This document shows positions 1 to 45,835 of a stretch of DNA of 64,000 bases, one piece after another. This DNA is from Eledone cirrhosa (Eukaryota). The position numbers and the translations under genes are program-made. The notes beneath the pieces were generated by a model. The model saw only the letters and a program-made list of their open reading frames with translations, searched no databases and was not told the DNA's origin. Where the stretch lies: the NCBI GenBank assembly GCA_964016885.1, contig OZ024742.1:116622001-116686000 (forward strand). Direction: 5' to 3'. Every line of letters starts with the position of its first letter. Within the stretch, counting starts at the first letter, position 1.

Positions 1-821
1 ACATGAAGGCAATATTTTATAATTTATTTTCATGAGGTATTATGGATTTTTCAAATATCAATCTATATTTTTTGCTTCTATCTACAGTATATTTTGATTG
101 ATCTATTTTCTGATCATCTTCAGATTTCATGTTTCTAAATATACCAGTGGCCCAAAGATATATATGTATTTAGAAATAGCTTATATAACATGAATCTGCA
201 AACAGGTCAATCAAAATATGATAAATAGTCCATTCTTTCATTCAGCTGCTTGATCAGCTCATTCTATATGTGGCTGATTATTCTCTAAACATGTATATTT
301 TTATTATAACTCACAAAATGAAACATGACATATCATCATCATAACCATTTTACATCCACATTCCGATGCTTAAATATTTGAAAAAGCTGAACCCTTAAAT
401 TACATATCCAGTCCACCAAATGGGCTGACACACAGTTTGTCTTTATATACATATACACACTCACTGGACTGTATTATTTACTGTCTTGTTTCCCATTTAT
501 GTTATATATATATATATATTTATATATATGTCTGTCTTAGAAGTGCAATTTGCTATATGTAATCTTCTTTTATAAGGTATATCTTAAAATGGAACTTCAT
601 GATGAGGTTACATTTTAAAATTATAAACTTCAAAGGAGTAAATTGATTCAGACATTTACAATTTATACATTATTTTTCTTTCAACTAATAAATGTGTTTC
701 CTCCTTAACATTTCTGCAAATGTAATATTTTGGTTAATTCTCGGAGCAGTTCTTCAGAAATTATATATACATATTTCTTGGTAACTACAACTAATTATTA
801 TATATATATATAATATATATA

Positions 822-1236
822 TATAAAGTGACAATAAGACTTGCCATATTTTGTAAACGTTATTACATATTACAATTTGCTTCCATATCAATCAGCTCAG
901 TGTGTGATCATGTGATTGGATTCTGACTCTTAATCGACACTTCTTCAGATATGAGAGTTTACATAGGTGGTCCCAGCATATGTAAACTCTCACATCTGAA
1001 GAAGTGTCGATTAAGAGTTGAGATCCAATCATATGATCACTCCCAAGCTGATCGATATGGAAACAAATTGTAATATGTAATAAAGTTTTACAAAAAGCTG
1101 CAATTCTTATTGTCACTTCATATAAACTGTGCAAAATACAGCCACCTTAAACCTGGAGCACAACTCAATGAGAAACAGATATAGTAACAGCATCGAGTTC
1201 TTCGACCAGTAACACCAAGTTACCTACCTAATAACG
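822..1236. mobile_element. Palindromic non-coding PLE-type mini-insertion carrying hammerheads
   Basis: ~822-965 is the diverged reverse complement of ~979-1124 with a ~13-nt spacer. The right arm continues ~110 nt further. Flanked by (TA)n. Confidence 0.75.
991..1077 (+). ncRNA. Type I hammerhead ribozyme motif (mutated mirror copy 866-953, minus)
   Basis: CACAT(CATAT in mirror arm)-CTGAAGA-A-GTGTCGAT...ATCGATAT-G-GAAAC-AAATT-GT-A/ATATG. Predicted GUA cleavage after 1072. Confidence 0.7.
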
Positions 1237-1259
1237 TATATATATATATATATATATAT

Positions 1260-1510
1260 CATCATCACCATTTTACGTCCGTTCTTCCACGCTAGCATGG
1301 GTTAGACGGGTTGTCCTGTGGTGGGCAGTATCTGGTCAGCTGACCTTGTCTTGCTCATACGGGAACTGATTCATGCTTGATTTCTACAGCTGGATGTCCT
1401 TCCTAACACCAACCTCATTTACAGTGAGTGGTGGGTGCTTTTTTTCTGTGGTGCCTACACGCCCACTTTACAGCGTGGGCTGGGTGCATTTTTGCTGTGG
1501 CACTTCCACG
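1260..1510 (-). mobile_element. RTE-type 3' tail fragment or RTE-tailed SINE
   Basis: (CAT)n tail plus ttccacgctagcatgggttagacggg...gctggatgtccttcctaacaccaac, matching the 3' ends at ~6200-6358 and 7577-7800. Confidence 0.7.
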
Positions 1511-1529
1511 ATCACTTTGCAGTGGAATG

Positions 1530-1700
1530 ATAGGTACCCCAGTCCTATCATCTCATTTCGACAGCTGAGTAAACTGGAGCAATGTGAAATAAAATGTCTT
1601 GCTCAAGGAAAGAACAATAATGTGTCTTGCTCAAGGAAACAAAACATCACCTGGTCCGAGAATTGAACACATATCCTTTCGATTGCAAGCCCAATGCTTG
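1530..1700 (-). mobile_element. Degenerate tRNA-derived SINE
   Basis: Minus strand has a B-box-like gttcaattc followed by ccttgagcaagacac...tttatttcacattgctccag, homologous to 45459-45580. Confidence 0.65.
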
Positions 1701-1715
1701 TATATATATATATAT

Positions 1716-2094
1716 TTAAAAGAATAGAGGTGTAACACACAAGTTATGATATATTGGTAAGCGAAAGAGAAAATGCTGACAAATTGTTCACAGTGAAAAA
1801 TAGTTTAATTAGAAATAAGTGAGAATTAGTAATAGTATTGATTAGTAATCAGTTTTGGTTTTTAGTTTTACCGGTTGTGCATTTCTAATGCTTTTCAAAA
1901 ATAATTTTGAGATAGAGCGTCCGTGATGTTTGCTCTGCAGAACAAACATCACGGACGCTCTATCTCAAACCGGTAAAACTAAAAACCAAAACTGAATACT
2001 AACCAATACTATTACTAATTCTCACTTATTCCTAATTAAACTATTTTTCACTGTGAACAATTTGTCAGCATTTTCTATTCCGTTTACCAATATA
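1716..2094. mobile_element. Palindromic mini-insertion with a degenerate U3/A8 hammerhead (1862-1904, minus)
   Basis: Arms ~1749-1937 and 1938-2094 centred on TCTGCAGA. The left arm extends ~33 nt further. The right arm lacks the ~30-nt hammerhead core. Confidence 0.7.
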
Positions 2095-2099
2095 TATAT

Positions 2100-2500
2100 A
2101 TCATCATTATCATAGTTTTTACACCTATGTTTCTTCACATGCATGGATGGATGGATCCTTTTCAGCACAACATCTTTCCATTGAGTGTTTCAGTGATTTG
2201 AGATCAGATTTCATGACCTCTGCACAAGTCTTCCTTGGCTTTCTACTATTGCACTGGAATTTTGTACTCTTTTTAACCCAGTGATCACCATCCATGTGCA
2301 TCACATGTCCATACCAACACAGTCTTCTCTTTTGCACACTTCCGATTTTTCTTATATCCAGTTTGTCTCTCAATTCATCCAATCTCTGTCATTTTTCTTA
2401 CATTCATATTGCCCATCAATCACAGCATGCTTGCTTCATTTCTCTCCAGCCTTATTCTAGTTATAATGCATTTGGAGCACCTTCCTACACTGCTAATTAA
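2100..2500 (-). mobile_element. RTE LINE 3' fragment
   Basis: Translates as RRLCWYGHVMHM...KPRKT, the RTE C-terminal motif, with a degenerate (CAT)n tail at ~2100. Confidence 0.8.
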
Positions 2501-2607
2501 ATGCCATATGCCCACTTTTTGCTCAGTTGCAGTGGATCTTAATTTTAAAAGTTCTATTCCCATGTTCATTTTATTGAGTGATATTTGTTCTCATAGTTTT
2601 CTTTATG

Positions 2608-3024
2608 TTATGGCTCAGATATTGGTTTTATCTGTAATTTTCTGGGTAAGATCAGTGTGGTAGAACATCCATTTCTCATAGATTCCAACTTTTTTTGATA
2701 TTTTTCACTATGTTCTAAAATGTGAATCTCTTTTTTCCTATGTGTTTTCCAAATGCATCGAATTTTGCTTTTGATGTGGTGTAAAGTTTCTTGTTCTGTT
2801 TCGCTGCTCATTAATTTTTCCATTCTATTACATAATAGCTGTATGTTGAGACTAAACTCATTATTGGTTGTTCTTTTGTTGTCTTCGTTGTTGCAGTCAT
2901 GTTTAGGATTGTGTAGTTTATTGAATTTTTCTGTTAGGATTGTGAGGTTTCTATTTATAACTTTTAATTCATTTAGAATATCATCATTTATAATTGTGAT
3001 TGTTGTGTAGATGTTCAGTGCCAT
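2608..3024 (-). pseudogene. Unidentified ORF fragment, possibly the N-terminus of a retroelement protein
   Basis: 138-aa Asn/Lys-rich ORF starting ~190 nt downstream of a degenerate hammerhead-like motif (3214-3254, minus). No recognisable domain. Confidence 0.25.
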
Positions 3025-3305
3025 TTTCTGGATTTGTATAGTTTTTAATAACTGAAAAAAGGTGGGAGTGGGGGAATTTTCTACAAATCAAAGGTTATAG
3101 GTAAAAAGTAAGAGAAAAAGCACAAAGGTGTATTTAAAGAATATTGTTTTTTTTAATCCGAGAGAATAAATATTTTTATAATTGTTACATTAAATGAATT
3201 TAAATTTTGACAAATAATACCGGCTTCGATTGGTATATCAATCTTATAAACTATAGAAAAGGTTCTGTACACACACATGTATATATATATATATATATAT
3301 ATATA

Positions 3306-4902
<1,597 letters not shown>

Positions 4903-5004
4903 TATATATCTGTGTGTGTATATATACACGCACATATATATATGATCATCATCATCAACATTGATCAATTTCCATTTTCCACACTAGCATGGATATGTAT
5001 ATAT

Positions 5005-6358
5005 ATGCAGAGTTGATCTAACGCTCATAGCTGAATCGATGGCTGAACTAGAGAAGAAATTCCAAACATGGAAGCATGGCCTAGAATCAAAAGGCCTTAA
5101 AGTTAACTTGTCTCAGACTAAAGTTCTAGTATGTAGGATAGAAAATAGGGCACAGGTCCCCTCTTGGAAATGGCCATGCTCAGTGTGTAGGAAAGGAGTA
5201 GGCAGAAATTCCATTTTATGTCCCAAATGTAAAATACGGGTGCATAAAAGATACGGTGGGATCACAGGTAAGCTATCTAAGAACGTAGATTTTATATGTG
5301 GCAGGTGCTCAGGTGCAATAAGTAGCAAGCGTGCACAGGATACTAGCTCCTTCTATTGCCCAGATGGCTCGATAGAAATAGTCGACACCTTGCGTTACCT
5401 GGGTAACAAAATTAGCAGTGGTGGAGGGTGCTCAGAAAGTACAGTTGCCAGAATCAGAATGGGATGGAAAAGGTTCAGAGAGCTTATACCGCTATTGGCC
5501 ACTAAAGGTTTCTCTCTAAAAATGAAAAGCAGACTGTATAATGCCTGCATATGAACAGCTATATTACATGGCAGTGAGACATGTGCATTGTTTACAGAGG
5601 ATCTGCGAAGACCGGAGAGGTACGAAGCATGCATGCTCCGTTGGATGTGTAATAGGAATATACGCGAATGGCAAAGTATAAATGAACTAAGTGAGAAATT
5701 AGGAATAAGAGGGATCAGATACTGTTTACTTGAGAAAAGACTATGTTGGTATGGTCACGTGATGCGCATGAAAGACGACAGCTGTATAAAAAGTGCAGCG
5801 TGATCAAAATTGACGGAAGTTACTAGGCAGACCCAGAAAAACCTGGGACGATTTGATAAATTCCGACCCTACACACTTACACTTCTCTAAGACAATGTCA
5901 CGAGACCGAAATATTTGGTGCTACACAGTAATACAGAAAACCTCCCTTGCCTAAGTAAAAAGTGAAACCTACAGTCAGTAGGCACCTTTTAATCAAATAT
6001 ACACCCCCCTCCTACTACCCCAACTACCCCCATCCCCAGCCCCATCAACACCACCCCTTTCTCTGTAAAGTTATGTTGGTACCACAACATTCAGTCCTAA
6101 ATAAATGAGGTCGTGTAGGTGTCACAACAACAAAAAAACACGGTCCACGCTGTAATGTGGTCGTGTAGGTAACACAGTAAAAACCTCCCAGTCCACACTG
6201 TAAATGTGGTTGGTGTTAGGAAGGGCATCCAGCCGTAGAAAACCTGCCAGACAGTTCCATACAAATGAGACGACCAATCTTGCCTCAAGTGGGACAGTTC
6301 CCATCTAAACCCAAGATAGCGTGGAAGATAGACATTAAACGATGATGATAGTGATGAT
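5005..6358 (+). mobile_element. 5'-truncated RTE LINE (end of RT, PHD finger, 3' UTR, (GAT)n tail)
   Basis: GLKVNLSQTKVL, CSVC...CPKC...HKR...CGRC, RYLG, MLRWMC and WYGHVMRM motifs; stops present. Confidence 0.9.
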
Positions 6359-6376
6359 GATATATATATATGCATG

Positions 6377-6460
<84 letters not shown>

Positions 6461-6466
6461 TGTATA

Positions 6467-6996
6467 TCATCATCATCATCATTTTATGTCCGCTTTACCC
6501 TGCTTGCAAGGGTGGGACAGGTCCTCTTCAGCACAACATCTCTCCACTTGTCACGGTCAATCGTAATCTCTTCCGTGAGTTTCAGTGATCTGAAGTACGG
6601 TCTCACCATCTCCGCCCATGTTTTTCGAGGCCTTCCTCTACTGCGTCTTTTCTCTCCTGGGATTTCTTGGCACATCTCTATCCAGCTGTCATCCTCCATG
6701 CGCATCACATGTCCATACCATCTCAGTCTTCTCTCCTGCACACCACAACATATCCCTCTTATACCCAGTTTCTTTCTCAACTCATCTATGCTTGGTCGTT
6801 CCTGCACATTCAACGGAGAATGCACATCCAACGGAGCATGCACATCCAACGGAGCATGCTTCCTTCATTTCTCTCTAGCAGTCGCATATCCACTACAGTT
6901 GCTGCCCATGTCTCACTAAGATGCAGCGTCGCGCTTCTCACACAGGCATCATATAACCATCCTTTCGTACGCAGGGAGAAATCCTTCTTTGTCAAC
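6467..6996 (-). mobile_element. RTE LINE 3' fragment, same family as 42347-45403
   Basis: [15 protein letters not shown]...RGRPRKTW...RTCPTLASR, with a (CAT)n tail at 6467-6481. Confidence 0.9.
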
Positions 6997-7045
6997 ATAC
7001 ATCTGTATATATATATATGCATGAATATATATATATGTATATATA

Positions 7046-7129
<84 letters not shown>

Positions 7130-7133
<4 letters not shown>

Positions 7134-7555
7134 AAGGATACTATTTACGGTTATGTATATACTAAAACTTTTTATAGTTATATATATTTTAAATCCTAAA
7201 GAGTGAAAGACAGTAATTTATTACTACCTTAAGATAAACCTGTAAGATAAATAGCTCAATGTAATAACATCAGTTGTTCTACAGAGCATTTGAATTTTAA
7301 TTTTGCTTTGATTCTGTTTTAATATGATTTTAATTTTTGAATTTAAATTGCCATTCAGAAATAATATAATATGTGTCACCCCACTGTGCATCAATATATA
7401 CATATGTATCTGTATGTCTCTTGCGTTGGAAAGGAGGGCATGAATGTATACAAACATTAAATAATGCTCCGAAGACTCCAAACCTCGGTTTGGATGAAAC
7501 AATTGTAAGCTAATAAATGGTTTGAACATAACTTTGATTCCTGTGAATTCTCTCT
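7130..7555 (+). mobile_element. PLE-type non-coding 3' fragment in (TA)n
   Basis: AT-rich segment between microsatellites that ends ~45 nt after a hammerhead motif. Confidence 0.5.
7466..7510 (+). ncRNA. Minimal type I hammerhead motif (U4C in this copy)
   Basis: GCT-CCGAAGA-C-TCCAAACC-TC-GGTTTGGA-T-GAAAC-AATT-GT-A/AGC with palindromic stem III ACAATTGT. Confidence 0.65.
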
Positions 7556-7576
7556 CTCTATATATATATATATGTG

Positions 7577-8125
7577 CATCATCATCATCATCATCTTCGT
7601 TTAACATCCATTTTCCACTCTAGCATGGGTTAGACGAGAGTTGTCCCACTTGAAGGCAAGGCTGCTCGGGTGACCATGTCTTGCTCATATAGGACTATCT
7701 GGCAGGTTTTCTACGGCTGGATGCCCTTCCTTACACCAACCACATTTACAGTGTGGAACTGGGAACTTTTTAGCGTGATACCTACATGGCCACATTACAG
7801 CGTGGACTGTGTGTTTCTTTTGTCGTGACACCTACACGATCTCATTTTCTCGTGCTGTTGGTTGGAGTGGGAGGATAGGGTAGGGGTAGTGGATTGGGGT
7901 GTATATTTGGTTAAGAGGTGCCTACTAACTGTAGGTTTCGCTTTGTATATAGGCAAGGCGGGTCTTCTGTATTACTGCGTAGCGCTAAAGATCTCGGTCC
8001 AGAGACATTGTCTTAGAGAGATGTAAGTGTGTGAGGTCGGAATTTATAAGATCATCCCAGGTTTTTCTGGGTCTACCTACTCCGTAACTACCATCAATTA
8101 TGATCGCCCTGCACTTTTTATGCAG
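7577..8125 (-). mobile_element. RTE LINE 3' fragment, family of 5005-6358
   Basis: Diverged reverse complement of ~5780-6358, including the (CAT)n tail. Confidence 0.85.
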
Positions 8126-8129
8126 CTAT

Positions 8130-8822
<693 letters not shown>

Positions 8823-9795
8823 TGAGAATAAACGTGCTGCGTGGTTGCTAATGGGTTACATATGAATAAAGTTAGTCCTTCATCAGTGATCTTCCAACCA
8901 TCATTGGTATTTCAACGCTTTAAAGACCATATACCTCCAGTTGGTGTGAGCAACGGCTAAAAAATGTCGTTGGGACACGTAAATAAAGGGGACACGAGAG
9001 TGTAAACAAACAAAGATGGTGAAGCAACGAAAAATGAGGAAGAAGGAGTCAAGTCCCAAATTTCCATGAATATAAGTTCGATGAAATCGTGAACGAGAAA
9101 GAATAAAGACCATCAAACCTGGTTTGAATGTGAGCAAGGAAGGAATTCCGTACAGGTCTAACGGGAGGAAGAAGGAATCTATTCTGTGAATTCGGTAAAC
9201 ATAAGTTCTGTGAAATCGTTGACGAGAGAGAGAAAAAAGGAAACCTGCCTGACCAAGGGTGCGAAAGAAAAGGATTACGCACAGGTCAAACGGGAAGCAG
9301 GAGGAGGAGGAGAGGTAGTAACAGAGAGTGAGTGAGGGAAGGGTGAGGAATAGGCTAACAGAGAGAGTGACTGCAAGAGAGGGTAAAGATACAGAGAAAG
9401 AGGAAGCAGTAAGACCGAAATAGACGGGTCACAGCGAGGGAAAAAAATATGTGTAAATATAAGAATAAACGTGCTGCGTGGTTGCTAATTGTTTACATAT
9501 GAATAAACTTAGTCCTTCATCAGTGATCTTCCAACCATCATTGGTATTTCATCGCTTTAAAGACCATATACCTCCGGTTGGTGCGAGCAACGGCTAAAAA
9601 AGGTCGTTGGGACACGTACATAAAGGGGACACGAGAGTGTAAACAAACGAAGATGGTGAAGTAACGAAAAGTGAGGAAGAAGGAGTCAACTCCAAATTTC
9701 CATGATTATAAGTTCGGTGAAACAGTGAACGAGAGAGAATAGAATCCTTCTTCCTCCCGTTAGACCTGTACGGAATTCCTTCCTTGCTCACATTA
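8823..9795 (-). mobile_element. Non-coding ~638-bp-unit tandem repeat (~1.4 units) with a short inverted terminal arm
   Basis: 8824-9105 recurs at 9462-9741. 9742-9794 is the reverse complement of ~9127-9180. Flanked by (TA)n and AT-rich tracts. Confidence 0.6.
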
Positions 9796-9836
9796 AAATA
9801 AAAAAAATATTATTATTATTTATTTTTTTATTCTAC

Positions 9837-9888
<52 letters not shown>

Positions 9889-10289
9889 TATATTTTTTTA
9901 ATTTATTTATCTATTCTTTTATTCACTTATTTGTTTATTTATTTATTTATGTATTTCTTTAGCCTAGCAATAGCGAGAGACTTATGTCTTAGTAACCAGA
10001 TTTTGCTTTTTTTTTTTCTCTCCCAGTACCTTTTTTGGTTTTACCTTTCATTGTTCTACTTACCGTTTCGACCTCCTCCACCTCCCCCTCCCCAGTATCC
10101 TTTTTGACCTCACACCCAGCTGTAGCTGACACTACCAACGCATGAATGGGTCTACTCCACCCCTTCTCTCTTTTTCTCCTACCGGCAGGTTTAGCTACCC
10201 CTTCCCCCACCAACTTGCCATCACAGATTTACTACTAACTTGTGATGTGACCAATCCTGGTGATTATCTCTTTGACCATATATGGAATT

Positions 10290-10383
10290 ACCCCTTGATA
10301 AGTTCGGCTATTTAAATACCAGAATAAACTTTCATTCAGTACAGAATTAGCCGTCGAAACGGCTTGAGCTCAGCCATCGGGGT
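10290..10383 (+). ncRNA. Type I hammerhead motif, U3/A8 core variant with long stem III, at the 3' end of a ~500-bp insertion (~9890-10395)
   Basis: ACCCC-TTGATAA-G-TT-CGGCTA...TAGCCG-TC-GAAAC-GGCT-TGAGCTCA-GCC-AT-C/GGGGT. Confidence 0.6.
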
Positions 10384-10393
10384 CTTACTTGTT

Positions 10394-10462
<69 letters not shown>

Positions 10463-10513
10463 GCATATATATATATATATGCATATATATATATATATAT
10501 GCATATATATATG

Positions 10514-10551
<38 letters not shown>

Positions 10552-10555
10552 TATA

Positions 10556-10604
<49 letters not shown>

Positions 10605-10625
10605 GTATATATATATATATATTTA

Positions 10626-10656
<31 letters not shown>

Positions 10657-10708
10657 GCATATAAATATATATATATGCATATATATATATATATAAAAAT
10701 ATATATAT

Positions 10709-10773
<65 letters not shown>

Positions 10774-10806
10774 TATATATATATATATATGTGTATATAT
10801 ATATAT

Positions 10807-10849
<43 letters not shown>

Positions 10850-10853
<4 letters not shown>

Positions 10854-11526
10854 ACTTTGAAATAACTTTGAAATGTTTTGAACAGTATTGGCCCAGGCCA
10901 TGTCTAACTTAATAGCACCACCTGGCGAAGTCTTTCAATTCAGGATTTGGGCACCATGGCCCATTCGAGAAGAGAATTACTGTTTGCGGAGACATATCCG
11001 GGTGTGGGTGGTTTGTCCGGGATTACTTGGAGGAATTTGTCCAAAGACTTCTTGAATTTTGTGTGGTCAGTTTCTGTTTTGACGTGTCCTGGTGTGATGT
11101 TGAAGAGAGCAGGGCCGATTGAGGTGAAATAATTGTGCCGTATTGTTGTTATGAGTTGCGATTTAGATTTTTGAATGGGACGGATAGCACGGGGCCCAAG
11201 CCTTGGGTGTATCTTGAAGGCGATGCCAACATCATTTGGGCAGTGATGATGGAACATTTTCCACATCATGCAGATAATATAACGCTCACGGCGACGTTGG
11301 AGTGAGTAAAGTTTCAGGTTTTCTAATCGACCCCAGTAGTCAAGGCCTGACATGCCATCTATCTTTTTCGTGATTGCCCTTTGAGGAGCTTCAAGTTTCA
11401 TGATACTTTGTTTCGTGTGGGGAGACCACAGTGGACAACAGTATTCAAGGTGTGGTCGGGCAAAAGTAGAGAAGAGAAGGATAATGGTGCGGGAATCTCT
11501 CGACTGGAAGGTTCTGAGGATCCACA
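10850..11526 (-). mobile_element. CR1-type LINE 3' fragment
   Basis: WILRTF...[13 protein letters not shown]...[11 protein letters not shown]...[11 protein letters not shown], with a short tandem tail (TTCAAAGTTAT)n. Confidence 0.88.
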
Positions 11527-11606
11527 CATATATATATATGCATATATATATATATATATATGCATATATATATATGTGTGTGTGTATATATATATGCATA
11601 TATATA

Positions 11607-11691
<85 letters not shown>

Positions 11692-11726
11692 ATATATAAA
11701 TATATATGGATATATGTATATATATA

Positions 11727-11778
<52 letters not shown>

Positions 11779-12032
11779 TATATATATATATTTATATATA
11801 TATATATAAATGCATGTATATATATATATGCATATATATATATATGCATATATATATATATATATATATATGCATATATATATATGCATATATATGCATA
11901 TATATAAATATATATATATGCATATATATGCATATATATAAATATATATATATATATATGCATAGGTATATATATATGCATATATATATATATATGCATA
12001 GGTATTTATATATGCATATATATATATATATA

Positions 12033-12106
<74 letters not shown>

Positions 12107-12117
12107 TATATATATAT

Positions 12118-12672
12118 AGATAAATCTACCAAGAGTTTACGGTAGTGTCCAATCCGTATGAAGAACTCAATGTAATCCGGATATCATGGAAAGAAGAGAT
12201 GCAATGAAAAATCACTTTCGGTGAAAGATAAACGGAATACAGAGTCAAGATAAAAAATTAAAAAAATAATGAATAAAACAATGAAACAGTTCCTTATATT
12301 AAACAAAAAAAGTTCATTATTTAACGATCGTTTCTAGGATATATATGTGTTAGAATTGGCATGCATATTCAACAGATCTATGTACAAAATTATACAAAAT
12401 TATACAAACTATCAAAATTAAATATACATACCAAACACATATATATGCCGTCTTCAGAAATAATAATTATTTCTGAAGACGGCATATATATGTGTTTGGT
12501 ATGTATATTTAATTTTGATAGTTTGTATAATTTTGTATAATTTTGTACATAGATCTGTTGAATATGCATGCCAATTCTAACACATATATATCCTAGAAAC
12601 GATCGTTAAATAATGAACTTTTTTTGTTTAATATAAGGAACTGTTTCATTGTTTTATTCATTATTTTTTTTT

Positions 12673-12680
<8 letters not shown>
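12118..12680. mobile_element. Palindromic mini-copy of the 29964-41910 PLE family with two hammerheads (12313-12464 minus, 12466-12617 plus)
   Basis: Near-perfect inverted arms around one base at 12465, homologous to 35063-35400. The long arm ends at the same nucleotide as the 29964 arm. Confidence 0.9.
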
Positions 12681-12717
<37 letters not shown>

Positions 12718-12765
12718 TATATATATATATATATATGCATATATATATATATATATATATGCATA

Positions 12766-12855
<90 letters not shown>

Positions 12856-12895
12856 TATATTTATAAATATATATATATATATATATATATGCATA

Positions 12896-12931
<36 letters not shown>

Positions 12932-12933
12932 TA

Positions 12934-12987
<54 letters not shown>

Positions 12988-12989
12988 TA

Positions 12990-13041
<52 letters not shown>

Positions 13042-13043
13042 TA

Positions 13044-13083
<40 letters not shown>

Positions 13084-13085
13084 TA

Positions 13086-13125
<40 letters not shown>

Positions 13126-13127
13126 TA

Positions 13128-13267
<140 letters not shown>

Positions 13268-13672
13268 GGAGGTGAGTTTTATTGTAGTACAATAAAGCAA
13301 TGCAGATATCGGATAAGAAGCACTCTACAGTTTGTGGGACTGGAGTATGCATAATATAAGATCAAAAGATGGTTAAAGGAGTTCCATATATTTTATTATG
13401 CGCATTTCAAAAACAAACATTATCATGCAATAATATTTGTGTTTTCATCAGTTAAAACAGGAGAACATGATATGAAGGCTAAAAAACACTTGTGGATAGT
13501 GCAGTTTTAAATCAACATATGAAAAGTGGTTTTAGATTGATGTGTGATATTGGGAAAAATATTTTATTTAGAGGGGGGGGGGGAGGATGAAAAGGGAACG
13601 AGATGAGAGGGAGAGATGGGTGATAGAGAGAAAGAGAAAAGAAAAAGGAAAAAGGAAAGAGAAAGGAAAAAG

Positions 13673-37999: not shown

Positions 38000-40900
38000 T
38001 AACATTATTCTAGAAATTATTTTAATTTAAATGTTAGTTAACCTATAAATTTAATTTAATTAATATTTTATTACAAATGAGAAAATATTATGTAATCATA
38101 AATTTTGAAAAACCTTTAAATATTACTAATATATACTCAGTAATTTAATTTATAGATTATTTTTAATTTATTTAAACCTTTTTATTATAATTCTTTTACA
38201 GATAAAATATAACAAAATAATATCATGTATCCAATGACGGAGAAAGAATTTTTAGTATTATAGACCTAATTAATATACATTTTGGAAATATATTTATTAT
38301 TTGGTTTTAGTTTTAATCAACCTAAAACTTTAATTTTAATTTGCTTAAAATTAGTATCCTTGTACAGACGAATTGCAGAATGTCATGTAATCATAGAATG
38401 GGATGTGTTTTGGATATATACCTAGTTAATATATTCTGTGCAATTTTTTGAAAAAGATATGTATATGTATATGTATATGTATATGTGTGTGTTGTGTATG
38501 TGTATCTGTATGTATGTTTATGTGAGTATATATGTATATATGCGTATATATATGTATATATATATATATATATGTGTGTATATGTATGTATATGTGTATG
38601 TGTATGTATATGTATATGTATGCGTATTAATTTTGATTTTTATTTGCATATAATTATATTATGCTATTGATGAAATACAATATCTGCTTTATGTATTGTA
38701 TACCTAATTAACATATACTAATTAACGTATACTATTGAAATAAATATATAATTTTTAATTTAGTTAACATATAATTTATATGCTACTACCGATGTAATAC
38801 TTTATTTTATTTTTATTTGGGTTTCTTTTCCCTATTACTAAATTCATCTCCTAATATTGATACCATAACGTTATTAACTTTAATTTAGTTATAATGTAAT
38901 TAATAATCTACTACTGTTTGACTTCATAATTCTGCTTCAAATATTATAAACCTAACTAATTTACACCTTAGAAATCAATATGTTCACTATCTTTGGTTTA
39001 GTTAACATATGATTAATGGTATACTTATTTATTTTGAGATGCATAGATTTCGTATTTCCTAGCACTGAAAATATGTAAGAACATACATTGAATTAAGATA
39101 CGGAAAATATTATATGTTTCTTGAAACATATATTTACTTTGATCCCCTTCTCCAAACCCCCCCTTTCCCCCATACTATTATCATCTGTATTTGTAAGCGT
39201 ATATGTATGAATATATATGTAGGTGGGTGTCTATATAGGTTTTGGTGTTTATTTCTAAATATAAAAATACATATATGAGCATGTAAATATGAATGTAAGA
39301 TTGAGTGTGTATATATGATTGTACATACATGTGTATGTATATATATGTATATATATGTATTATATATGTATGTGTATGTGAATGTGTGGTATGTATATGT
39401 GTATGTATATGTATATATGTGTATGTATGTGTATGCTTGTATATAGGAATATATGTATGTGTATATATGTAGGTATATGTATATGCGTGTATGTATGTAT
39501 GTGTATAAGTGTTGTGTATATATTTGTATGTCTCTCTATTTATATGTTTATCTTCGTATCTATGCGATATATGTGTGAGTGTGTGCACGTATGCATATGT
39601 ATGTGTTTTTTGTGTGTGTTTGTATGTGTGTGTGTATATATGTGTATGTGCGCACACTCACATACACATATATATATATACATATATGTGAGTGTGTATG
39701 TGTGTCTGTGTGTGTGTGTGTGTGTGTATGTGTATATATATATATATATATATATATATGTATATATATATATATATAGATATATATATGTATATATATA
39801 TATGTATATAGGTGTCTATGTGTGAATATATGTCTTTATTCGTATGTGTGTATTTATATATGTATATATTTATGTGTATGTATGTATGTGTATGTATGTA
39901 TGTATATATATATATATATGTATATATGTATATGTATATATATATATATATATATTATTCTTTATTATTATTGTAATATAACTTATGTGTATATGTGTAT
40001 AAGTGAGGTTATGTATGTATATATACTATGTGTATATATAAGAGTAATGAAATATATATATATATATATATATATGTGCATGTCTGTTTTTTATGTGTGT
40101 GTATTTATATATGTGTATGTGTATATGTATATATATATATATATGTATACGTGTGTGTATGTCGATATATATATATATATATATATACATGTGTGTGTTT
40201 GTATGTGTATTTATGGTGGTATGAGTGTGTGGATATATATGTTTATATATATATATGTATATATATATATATATGAGTCTATGTGTGTGTGTATATATAT
40301 ATATATATATATATATATATATATATATATATGTATATGTATGTGTATGTATGTGTGTGTGTATGTATATATATGTGTGTGTATGTATGTGTGTATATAT
40401 ATATATCTCTATTAATGCGTGTGTGTATGTATATACATATGCGTTTTTTTATTATTATTTTCATTTGTATGTCTGAGTTTGGTGAGGTGGTATCGTTTTT
40501 TATGTGTATACACATATATGGAAGCGTATGTATTTATTTATATGAGTATAGGTAGGTGCATATGTATGTATGATTATATATCTAATTCTATGTATGAAGG
40601 TACATCTATATATATATATATATATGTATATGCGTGTGTATGTAAGTTGTGTGTGTATGTATCTTTATGTCTATGTGAGTGTGTATATATATATATATAT
40701 ATATATATATATATATATATATATATATGTATATCGATGTGCGTATATGTATGTACATGTATATACATGTATGTGTGTATGTATGTGTATGTATATTTAG
40801 ATGTATGGATATGTATGTGTATATATATGTATATATATATGTATATATATATATATATATATATATATGTGTGTGTGTGTGTATATATATATATATGGAT

Positions 40901-42346
40901 ATATATCTTTATTATCTATTTTTTATATATATGTGTATGTGTGTATGTGTTGCGCGTGTGTGTGTGTGTATATATATCTTTTTATATGTGTATGTGTATG
41001 TTCGTGTAAGTGTATGTGTGTGTATGACTGTATACGTATGTGTGTATGTGTGTATGCGTAAATATCTCTATGTGCGCGTACATGTATGTATGTGTATGTA
41101 TATCTGTATGTGTATGTACATTATATTATATTTATTATATTTTATTGTTTTTATTTTTTTATTTTTCTTAATTTATAGATACATTTATATTAGGCAGTCT
41201 GCTCTGACAATCTAATACTGACCCCTCCCCCCCCTCCCACCTAATTTCTGTATCTTGATCTTGAAATGTGTGTGCCAGTGTTTTATGTGAGTGATTTAAT
41301 TTCTATTTGCTTATGATTTTATATCCACATATATAAATGTGAGTGGGGGAGTGTGTGTGTTTGTATGTTCGTGGTTATGTGTATATTTATGCATATACGC
41401 GCATGTATGTGTGATTATACTGATATGTGTGAGTATGAAAAAAATATATTTATATGCTTGACTCCATAAGTATCATTGCGCATCTTATCAGCGCATTAGG
41501 CTTACAGAGATATTAACCTTGAAATTTTGTGTTTGCATCCATCTTTTTAGTATGCACATACAAATTATACACACATTATTGTAAAATATGTGTAAGGTTT
41601 TTACATGTATATACACACACCAAACTGCTTTTAACCCTTTGTGTTTTCATTGGTCAATTTTGAACTGATATTTTGAATTGTTGTTATTATCAATAAATAT
41701 ACTTCATTATTTCTGAAGACGGCGTATATATGTGTTAGGTATGTATATTTAATCTTGATAATTTGTATAATTTTGTATAATTTTGTACATAGATCTGTTG
41801 AATATGCATACCAATTATAACACATATATACCCTAGAAACGATCGTTAAATAGTGAACTTTTTTTGTTTAATATAAGGAATTGTTTGTTCATTATTTGTT
41901 TAATATTTTATATATATATGCATATATATATATGCATATATATATATATATGCATATATATATATATATATATATGCATATAGATAGATATATGCATATA
42001 TATATATATATATATATATATATATATATATGCATATATATATATATATATATGCATATAGATAGATATATGCATATATATATATATATATATATATATA
42101 TATATATATATATATATATATTCATATATATATATATATATATATATATATATATATATATATATATATATATATATATATATTCATATATATATATGTA
42201 TATATATATATATATATATATATATATATATATATATATATATATATATATATATATATATATATGCATATATATATATATATATATGCATATATATATA
42301 TATATATATATATATATATATATATATATATATATATATATATATA

Positions 42347-42349: not shown

Positions 42350-45300
42350 TCATCATCATCATTTTACGTCCGCTTTTCCCTGCTTGCAAGGGTGGGACGG
42401 GTCTTATTCAGCACAGCATCTCTCCACTCGTCACGGTCCCTCGTCATCTCCACCGTGAGCTTCAATGATCTGAGGTCTGTTCTCACCACCTCCGCCCATG
42501 TTTTTCGTGGTCTACCTCTACCACGTCTTCCTTCAACTGGCATTTCCTGGCACTTCTTCACCCATCGGTCATCCTCCATGCGCATCACATGTCCATACCA
42601 CCTCAGTCTCCTCTCCCGTACACTACATTCTATCACTCTCAGACACAGTCTCTCTCTCAACACATTTATGCTGGGTCGTTCACGCACATTTACACTACAC
42701 ATCCAACGGAGCATGCTTGCCTCATTTCTCTCCAGCCGTCGCATATCCTCTGGAGTTGCTGCCCGTGTCTCACTACCATGCAGCATCGCGCTCCTCACAC
42801 AGGCATCATACAACCGGCCTTTCGTACGCAGGGAGAAACCCTTCTTCGTCAACAGAGGAAGCAGCTCCCTAAACTTCTTCCAACCCGTCCTTATTCTAGA
42901 TACTATGGCCTCGGAACAACCTCCTCCCATGCTAATCTGATCTCCTAGGTACCGGAAGCTATCCACCACTTCTATAGCGCCCTCTTTCATTTGAAAAATC
43001 TGTCTATCTGTGCGACTTCTACTGTCTAATTTCCCTGTACATCTACTGCATACATATTTCTCCCTACCTGTTAGTTTGCCTGCTATCCCGCTACATCTCT
43101 TGTGTACCCAGGATCTGCATTGTGTGCATTTTATAGAATTTATGCCAGTTCCTTTTATGCATATCGAACATGGCCATTTCCCTGACGGAATCAGGGTTTT
43201 GTCCTCTTTTCTACTCATCAACACTTTTGTCTTAGCTAGATTCACTCTCTGTCCTCTTGCTTCCAACTGCTGTTTCCATAGCCAGAATTTATTCTCTAGC
43301 TCCTCTACTGATTCTGCTATAAGAACCAGATCGTCAGCATAGAGAAGTTCCCATGGACAGCCAGTCTTAAACTCCTCTGTTATGGCTTGGAGGACTATAA
43401 TGAATAAGAACGGGCTGAGGACCGAACCCTAATGTACTCCTACTTGTATCTGGAATTCCTCACTAAACTCCATTCCTACCCTGACTTTTCTGAGAGTACC
43501 TCTGTACAAAGTTTGCACTGTCCTCACAAGCCATTCCTCAACACCTAGTTTCCTTAGGGACCACCAGATGACAGATCGGGGTACCCTATCAAAGGCCTTC
43601 TCTAGGTCAACAAAGGCTAAGTATAGTGGCTTATTCTTCTCTAAGAACCTCTCTTGCATTTGTCTCACCAAGAAGAGGGCATCTGTTGTACTCTTCCCAG
43701 GCACAAAACCAAACTGCATCTCATCTAGTGTGACCCTTTCTCTAATTAGTTGTGCTAAAATCCTTTCTGCCACTTTCATAACCTGATCTATCAGTTTTAT
43801 ACCCCTATAATTGCTCCTCTCCAAAGCATCCCCTTTACCTTTGTAGCAATTTATGAGAATACTGCTGCAACAGTCTTTGGGTATGACACCACCGTATATA
43901 GCCTTATTGATGATGCGTGCAACCAGTTTAGTGCCTACGTCCCCTGATGCCTTCAGCATCTCAGCAACTATTCCCGATGGTCCGGACACCTTACCATTTT
44001 TCATTTCCCTAATCGCGTCTGGGACCCTATATTCGTCAATCTCAATAGCTGGTCCCTCTGTCGGATCTACCAAGGGTAATTTCTCTCTCTCCCATTCGTT
44101 CTCCACATTCATCAGTCTCTCTTAATGACATTTCCAGGCCTCCTTTTTCTGATCATTCGTGACACTAAGTACATCGGCATCATCCCGGACACATTTATCT
44201 CCAACAACATCCTGATTTGCATTGACACACTGCCTTGCAATGTGGAACACCGCATGCCTCTGCTCTTCCGGACGCAGAACATTGGCAAACATCCTACTCT
44301 CTGCCTCCCTGCGTGCTAAGTACACCTGACGTCTAGCTTCTCTCTTAGTGGCTGTATATTCTTCCCTACTCCCACCCTTTTTCCAAGCCTTCCATGCTAG
44401 TCTTTTGTCTCTAATAGCCTTATCTACTGTGCTGTTCCACCACCACGTCACTCTCTGTCTGGTTGGAGCTCTGCTCCAGCCACAGGTTTCATCAGTAGCC
44501 TGCAGCAAGTTGTCACGTAAGAACTTCCAGTTATTATCTATGTCATACGTCTCTAAATCGTCTTCTTTTTCGTCATATACATCTTGAAGGAGGGCTTTCC
44601 TAAATTTGTATTTTAGTGAAAGGTCTTTTAGCTTCCAGACCTTTCTTCTCCACACCTTCCTATATGTCTCATTCCATCTCTTGCTTACTGAGATATCACT
44701 AACAACTAACCTATGCTGTGGGGTACATTCTTCCCCAGGGTATGCCTTGGTATTAGACACTATCTGCCTGTCCCGCTGCCTAACTAGCAGGAAGTCAATC
44801 TGGCTTATTTGCTCACCAGATTTGTAGGTTATTAGGTGATTGGCAGGTTTCTGGAAGTTTGTGTTGCAAATATTCAATGTACTCGCATCACAGAATTCAA
44901 GAAGTCTCACTCCTTCTTCATTTCTTGAACCGTAACCGTGCCCACCATGTACCCCAGTGTAACCATCCTGGAGCTGTCCAACATGACCATTGAAGTCTCC
45001 TGCTAGCATAACGATGTCTCCGTCCTCTGTCATTGTGGTTGTTTGCAAAAGTTGCTCATAAAAGCAGTCTTTCTCATCTTTGCTTAGGCCTGCTTGGGGA
45101 GCATAGACCGAGATGATTGTCAGTAGTCTCCTACCTACAACTAATCTAAGCTTAATTATTCGATTACTAACTCGAACTACCTCTTATTGATCCATTTCTC
45201 AGCCAGGAAAATGCCTACTCCCCCTAACCCATCATCCTTACCTACCCAGAATAGCTTATAGCTAAGACGCTTGCCTACGACTAGTCTCGCAGATGCACCT

Positions 45301-45458: not shown

Positions 45459-45580
45459 GGTGTGTGGCGGAGTGGTTAGAGAATTGGATTCGCAATCGTA
45501 AGGTTGTGAGTTCGATTCCTGGACCAGGCGATGCGTTATGTCCTTGAGCAAGACACTTTATTTCACGTTGCTCCAACTAC
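45459..45580 (+). mobile_element. tRNA-derived SINE (CORE-like), 3'-truncated
   Basis: A box TGGCGGAGTGG, B box GTTCGATTCC, then TGTCCTTGAGCAAGACACTT. Confidence 0.8.
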
Positions 45581-45707
45581 CTGGAGTTGCGACCGATAGA
45601 TAGTATTAGCAATTGGAAAAACCAACGAAAACATTGTTCCCACTGTCCGATTTGACGAAAGTTGATCGTTCTTATCTATATATATATATATATGCATATA
45701 TATATAT

Positions 45708-45835
45708 AGTTTAGCGAGGTTTTTTATATGAAATCGTGTGTCGAAACAGATATTGTTATACTTGACAGCGAGAAGCGAAAACCAACCAAACAGTGAGTGT
45801 GTTCTGTTATTAATTCTGGCAAGTATAACAATATA
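45708..45835. mobile_element. Tail-out mini-insertion, same family as 21181-21315 and 28676-28960
   Basis: ATATTGTTATACTTG (45750-45764) and CAAGTATAACAATAT (45820-45834). The interior matches 21220-21277. Confidence 0.7.

Follow-up and report, generated by a model that had tools for sequence, protein, structure and literature searches.

Insertions of Penelope-like elements (PLEs) generally carry an inverted, 5'-truncated copy and a tail of 30–40 bp that is often found at one end only, and the sections on insertion structure in the papers describing them invoke endonuclease resolution or self-priming and give no count (PMC8557442, PMC3846280). One PLE clade, Hydra, targets (TA)n (PMC8557442). 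The closest described system is PAc, a Poseidon element of Anolis carolinensis, for which it was reported that both strands of AT-rich targets are cut and extended in vitro, that copying starts at two internal RNA sites with a stem-loop at the start, that the tail is the sequence between the two start sites and that a dimer is predicted (Frangieh et al. 2024, PMC11167929). Here we describe the PLE insertions in a 64,000-nucleotide stretch of the Eledone cirrhosa genome (assembly GCA_964016885.1, contig OZ024742.1, positions 116,622,001 to 116,686,000 of the forward strand; in the following, the window) together with their copies elsewhere in the genome. In ten PLE families, lettered A to J, the outer ends occupy one of two fixed positions, a short one (S) and a long one (L), nearly every two-armed insertion combines one of each, and in the Hydra-type families each position is marked by its own copy of a conserved RNA box.

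The arrangement proposed below shares with PAc the two internal RNA start sites, the tail between them, the extension of both strands and the AT-rich targets (PMC11167929). The PAc sites, however, are adjacent, giving a tail of 30–40 nt, and lie inside the open reading frame (ORF), whereas the tails here measure 60–137 nt and both sites of the Hydra-type families precede the start codon, each in front of its box (PMC11167929). Furthermore, the PAc paper, in its parts on start sites and ends, formulates no pairing rule, and inspection by eye reveals no such box in the RNA drawn in its Fig. S1 (PMC11167929).

To sample the 3.0-Gb genome, nine DNA searches were made, of which eight gave matches (one family C query yielded zero candidates), together with one protein search; 100 stretches were fetched for partner finding in addition to four preset 49-kb blocks. 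Natural read-through copies served as the reference for end mapping, and end distances are given as modal numbers of nucleotides after the predicted hammerhead cut (S/L). In each family the end distribution was sharply bimodal, family A being older and noisier. The modal values were 52/~168–172 for family A (insertion at 822), 64/201 for B (12118 and 29964), 43–46/134 for C (13265), 54/146 for D (18467), 52–56/~158 for E (20052) and 53–56/143 for F (copies at 19536 and 24868), and a seventh window family, G (28671–28960), followed the same pattern with 161/221. The original prediction, made from the letters of the window, had proposed two such distances per family and an end base shared by the insertions at 12118 and 29964. 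Genome-wide mapping agreed with its short and long values within a few bases, the plotted endpoints of each family were bimodal and neither continuous nor random, and the two family B copies proved to have the identical L end; the value of 130 noted for the family E window copy is due to a deletion in its tail. Family J (window 10338–10398, and many other loci) is very common, tiny and palindromic, with the 3' half of a GUC-type hammerhead, S at +20 and L at ~+97; neither a read-through copy nor an ORF was found for it. An origin of the endpoints as assembly artefacts was rejected, as contigs from three public runs have loose TA-flanked ends at the L position of family B, 35405 (L only, among the matches listed).

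Pairs were accepted only if the inner arm ends met within 60 nt (in family J by anchor, within 450 nt), and ends aligning off the modes were assigned by threshold and then viewed. The end-mapping queries for B, E, A and F lay upstream of S; those for C, D and G included the tail, so that for these three families the test is one of L+S against L+L. Evidently, the two ends are not chosen independently: 176 of 181 tail-out pairs (97%) were S+L, as compared with 50% under independent choice. Families A to I accounted for 153 S+L, two S+S and two L+L pairs (157 junction-verified pairs), and family J for 23 S+L and one S+S (24 pairs). Incidental pairs, belonging to a family other than the one searched for (J excluded), were S+L in 38 of 39 cases, and the few verified pairs of the four preset blocks (two of I, two of J) were S+L throughout. 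The expectation of one short and one long end per insertion, with few pairs both short or both long, was thereby borne out.

The family B ORF of 813 amino acids (aa; 35558–37999, + strand) is intact and encodes a reverse transcriptase (RT) with a YRDD core plus, at the C-terminus, a GIY-YIG-like motif; it has 121 relatives. A Pfam search with this protein gave no match at E <= 0.01, and its identity as a protein of the endonuclease-carrying (EN+) PLEs is therefore read from motifs. The features of EN+ PLEs are present, namely a pseudo-long terminal repeat (pLTR), a partial tandem plus an inverted copy, and a tail. Within the pLTR a hammerhead is predicted from its core motif and stems; the cores of C and E were located by script and those of the other families by eye, and Rfam detected none of them. 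The predicted hammerheads of families B (35070–35204) and A (996–1072), among those missed by Rfam, have a very long stem II of ~120 and ~65 nt, respectively.

Judged by the motifs of Craig et al. 2021 in its sections on clade definition (PMC8557442), families B, C, D, E, F, H and I are probably Hydra-type PLEs. RW, from the RWK-type motif, and DKT were invariant in all seven, the third residue after RW being K in H and E and R or T in the rest; the CxCX5C linker was found in the B, C, D, F, H and I proteins (E is known from its N-terminus only), and the endonuclease motifs CxxC and CxH were present in the proteins of B, C, D, H and I (the F frame breaks earlier). Insertion into (TA)n agrees with the clade description, while the units, at 3.6–6.6 kb, exceed its 'generally under 3 kb' because of long 3' untranslated regions. 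Family G, with a 1257-aa ORF and a CX4CxxC linker before GIY-YIG, is Neptune-type by motif (CX2-5CxxC), and no ORF was seen for family A.

In read-through copies the same stem-bulge box, (R)CUCY, a loop of 8–110 nt and RU(Y/A)GAG(Y), follows both S and L. In the Hydra-type families these twin boxes sit between hammerhead and start codon, and each end lies ~7 nt 5' of its box. In family B, for example, box 1 spans 35273–35353 (S junction 35265–35268) and box 2, which is present in read-through copies only, 35411–35528 (L junction 35402–35405), both on the + strand. In B, C, D, E, F and I, read-through copies have exactly two 3' half-motifs downstream of the predicted cut, one after S and one after L; family H has a third further downstream, past the start codon. 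Because of TA microhomology each junction is known only as an interval. The junction-to-CUC intervals at 16 sites in 9 families, 11 obtained by script and 5 by hand where the script lost its anchor or settled on a different CUC, all contain 7, which is their sole common value; the CUC trimer occupies 1.6% of positions in the box regions. For family H two motifs were picked before end mapping, and the ends then mapped 4–7 and 4–9 nt before them. Of the 16 boxes of this genome, 11 have C-G and 5 have U-A as the pair inside the 2-nt bulge. An Rfam search returned no family matching the box.

A metagenome scan yielded 78 loci of relatives with 33–44% protein identity, and 52 of these, with a match extending over the N-terminal part of the protein and at least ~95 nt of upstream sequence, were used. 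Upstream of the ORF, 27 loci carried two 3' half-motifs on the sense strand, 3 loci carried three and 9 a single one, and 13 had none; on the antisense strand of the same loci, two were present in 1. The order was again hammerhead, box, box, start codon, with a box spacing of 52–83 nt in 28 loci. Since MAFFT left the 5' box halves unaligned, pairs were counted by script, with no covariance model, and with a search pattern that admitted all four pair types at the bulge. In 58 metagenome boxes the pair inside the bulge, the fifth of the stem, was C-G in 40, U-A in 16, U-G in 2 and C-A in none (Fisher p = 2e-12, uncorrected for relatedness). Either pair type was found in box 1 or in box 2, and the sequences of the two boxes are nearly interchangeable. 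Three of 19 terminal copies stop at contig ends; among the other 16, 12 end 3–9 nt before a box (one of them if a 2-nt indel is allowed), 2 are ambiguous and 2 end elsewhere.

We consider it fairly probable that two element enzymes on the two boxes of one RNA prime copying from both ends of one DNA break. An RNA reaching from the pLTR through the hammerhead, box 1 and box 2 would be bound by two proteins, whose GIY-YIG domains would place staggered nicks in (TA)n. Over 2–6 nt, each DNA 3' end would then anneal to the U/A-rich stretch that lies 5' of its box, and copying would begin at a set distance from that box. An enzyme that began at L would either stall at the S primer, which would leave a tail-only arm, or displace the S cDNA; each cDNA would truncate independently or run off the RNA 5' end, and the two cDNA 3' ends would finally be joined head to head and filled in, the tail being the interval between the two start sites. 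The fuller formulation, to which we give about even chances, is that the Hydra clade uses a concerted two-ended target-primed reverse transcription in which an RT dimer sits on the tandem boxes of a single transcript, each box acts as a 7-nt ruler, and two first-strand cDNAs are joined with no second-strand step of the kind used by long interspersed nuclear elements (LINEs). A dimer prediction with residues 1–495 scored 0.00 and gave no answer.

The inner junctions are head to head, often with 1–9 nt of overlap (short microhomology), and TA was called on both flanks in 114 of 131 pairs, the call being automatic and several of the misses alignment-end artefacts. One family G insertion outside (TA)n is flanked by a target duplication of 9–12 bp, which is consistent with staggered nicks. 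Among 153 pairs the short arm reached further 5' in 55 and the long arm in 42, and both were equal within 20 nt in 56; for pairs having an arm beyond -400 the ratio of short to long was 23 to 24. The earlier observation that the short arm reaches further 5' consequently holds for the two ORF-bearing window copies and not genome-wide. Most arm pairs overlap in sequence; others do not, such as a family B pair with the short arm extending to -6370 and the long arm ending at +60. In 92 pairs not chosen via a tail query, 16 long-arm 5' ends fell between -15 and +5 of S as compared with 20 in the next 84 nt upstream (p = 8e-4, for a window set post hoc), a hint that both arms were copied from the same RNA. 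Long arms were also seen to stop at S after two full units (family B, L012 region, G000:C4, ~1.533–1.546 Mb) or after one (family D, L160). The proposal that both break ends prime on the same RNA with overlapping cDNAs thus survives in its first part as the best reading, with two sites per pair; the cDNAs do not always overlap, and one class of long arms stops at S.

In many mini-insertions both arms end at one point, -141 in B, -123 in C and -166 in E, each on the A of an initiator-like TC|AT, and we infer that these shared hot spots reflect run-off at the transcription start. The Penelope element of D. virilis has been described, in the part of the literature covered, as having an internal, TATA-less promoter. 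In the window, the family B interval from the hot spot at 35063 to the predicted cut after 35204 (35063–35204, + strand) spans the predicted hammerhead with its long stem II. No AG, as expected of a splice acceptor, is present at the B -141 hot spot, and no clear pile-up of 5' ends was seen at the hammerhead cut (7 arms in the 0–9 bin, 1–6 in the adjacent bins); an untemplated G at the hot spots in 9 of 26 cases listed, duplicates included, was not used as evidence. About one third of the 30 family I copies that keep the ORF start (L341–L370) have, after one full unit, a 5' end in or beside the upstream box 2, which suggests a block there, by bound protein or by a circular template.

An unlikely, still conceivable alternative is that the two ends use different RNA molecules for priming, a built-in asymmetry of the complex assigning box 1 to one enzyme and box 2 to the other. 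Two templates would agree with arms that truncate independently and of which either can be the longer one, and the overlap of most arm pairs would then need no strand displacement. The pile-up of long arms at S speaks for one template, however, and with boxes that are nearly interchangeable a strict S+L combination across two RNAs needs an extra assumption. We regard it as less likely again that the boxes act on DNA, the endonuclease recognising a box in the cDNA or in a double-stranded intermediate, cutting 7 nt away and joining the ends to the target. Single-stranded DNA can form hairpins too, and the D. virilis endonuclease requires the tail region to recognise and cleave Penelope DNA, as cited in PMC11167929; on the other side, the PAc start sites were mapped on RNA and agree with its genomic ends (PMC11167929), the junctions show microhomology of the primer type, and both wobble pairs, U-G when read in the sense strand, would be mismatches on the cDNA, a weak argument at n = 2. 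Improbable, and rejected as the general route, is a fold-back in which a single cDNA started at L snaps back and copies itself, with either the endonuclease or TA microhomology resolving its hairpin at S: self-priming (Arkhipova 2013, PMC3846280) and endonuclease resolution (Craig 2021, PMC8557442) are both published, 56 of 153 pairs are near-perfect palindromes, some of which could still arise in this way, and TA-like microhomology exists at the S sites, yet the short arm would have to nest in the long one, which is contradicted by the 55 pairs in which it reaches further 5' and by the non-overlapping pairs, and S has the same box in the same register as L.

Priming at both break ends on the two boxes of one RNA has to be weighed against several observations that do not favour it. 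Five pairs are homotypic, L+L twice in family G and S+S in E, I and J (loci L218, L312, L072, L097 and L200); either double events or genuine homotypic priming could account for them. Of the 153 L calls, about 4 are open to doubt, owing to off-mode ends or read-through. Under the strict junction rule 104 young arms remained partnerless; some represent pairs split over unmerged loci, and many look single, so that two-ended events are not the sole outcome. At the boxes, a minor end class of family I (9 copies) lies 8–11 nt from the CUC, the outer pair is absent from both family H boxes, and the bulge-pair covariation loses weight to the extent that the loci are related. Predicted box pairing exceeded 0.5 in 11 of 16 sites only and was rarely above loop-shuffled controls; this weak folding-energy support would fit a protein-stabilised motif, without showing one. 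Family G pairs S with L without these boxes; both its sites have a common 7-nt AT-rich sequence and its ORF starts before both ends, and consequently the pairing rule crosses clades while the motif does not. Finally, the start sites of PAc showed no difference between strands in vitro, an outcome that neither demonstrates nor requires strict pairing (PMC11167929).

As judged by self-comparison of the window, all six insertions noted originally are tail-out inverted pairs within (TA)n tracts. The family A insertion consists of a short arm at 820–965 (- strand; S end at the left, in TA) and a long arm at 973–1236 (+), and that of an older subfamily of B of a long arm at 12113–12464 (-) and a short arm at 12466–12680 (+), both with their 5' end at the -141 hot spot. 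In family C the long arm (13263–13637, -) contains box 1 within its tail (13322–13346, -), and the short arm (13664–16744, +) carries a 5'-truncated RT/GIY-YIG ORF running to 15634 and a hammerhead core at 16644–16698. Family D is represented by a short arm at 18467–18541 (-) and a long arm at 18538–18708 (+), and family E by a long arm with the tail deletion at 20052–20350 (-) and a short arm with a hammerhead core at 20461–20505 (20350–20562, +). Family F left an arm with an L end, whose partner was not found (18958–19543, +), and one with an S end (23363–24868, +). The long and short arms of the Neptune-type family G lie at 28671–28916 (-) and 28914–28960 (+), respectively. In the other family B insertion, an inverted long arm of 4.6 kb (29959–34586, -) adjoins the main arm of 1.09 units with the S end (34587–41911, +).

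Insertions of several PLE families are stacked at 10400–21550 in expanding, degenerate TA tracts, which act as sinks. Two small insertions (21188–21316 and 45711–45830), which have family G short ends and, on their left, a short inverted piece, look like chimeric or subfamily tail-only pairs. Besides the PLEs, the window contains LINE-type-looking RT/endonuclease ORF fragments at 25126–27411 (-), 42364–45183 (-), 4988–5554 (+) and 10940–11521 (-), and between TA tracts at 45459–45675 a sequence resembling a tRNA-derived short interspersed element.

Twin priming of L1 is an occasional event in which one primer sits on the poly(A), the internal site depends on fortuitous complementarity and there is no overlap between the arms. 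The PLE insertions resemble L1 twin priming (PMC2837659) in that both break ends would prime on one RNA, giving an inverted insertion, and in that a long-arm class stops at the second primer site. Here, in contrast, both sites are fixed and internal, two-ended priming would be a principal outcome and most arm pairs overlap, the likeness being confined to the stalled-arm class. In telomerase, the template boundary element is an RNA helix, bound by a related RT, that fixes the copied interval; in the PLEs the helix lies 3' of the copying start and is duplicated, and the likeness is put forward as an analogy. As compared with the published accounts of PLE insertion, the present data add 97% pairing, arms that are not nested and a common motif with a common register (PMC8557442, PMC3846280). 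A pair of start sites and a tail at one end only have been described before (PMC11167929, PMC8557442, PMC3846280), and the two-site rule was therefore not as undescribed as originally supposed; our literature searches found no report of an S+L pairing count or of twin boxes, so that, beyond the known two-site core, the pairing rule and the twin boxes appear to be new. A 2026 retrozyme preprint, in the part available, does not treat tails and initiation, and Cervera and de la Pena, in the part covered, proposed circular templates for more-than-unit copies.

The inverted ends and one-sided tails of PLEs have so far been put down to self-priming or endonuclease resolution, and the near-strict S+L rule together with the boxes gives a concrete mechanism; the bases to be mutated follow from the conserved, covarying box located 7 nt from either end. 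Box 2 is missing from terminal copies, so that only read-through RNA, tandem or circular, would serve as template; this would explain why PLEs need more-than-unit copies to move. If the mechanism is true, the box is the first RNA recognition element to be defined for a PLE clade. The RTs of PLEs are the closest relatives of telomerase, and an RNA helix that fixes the start of copying would therefore bear on the origin of telomerase-type RNA recognition.

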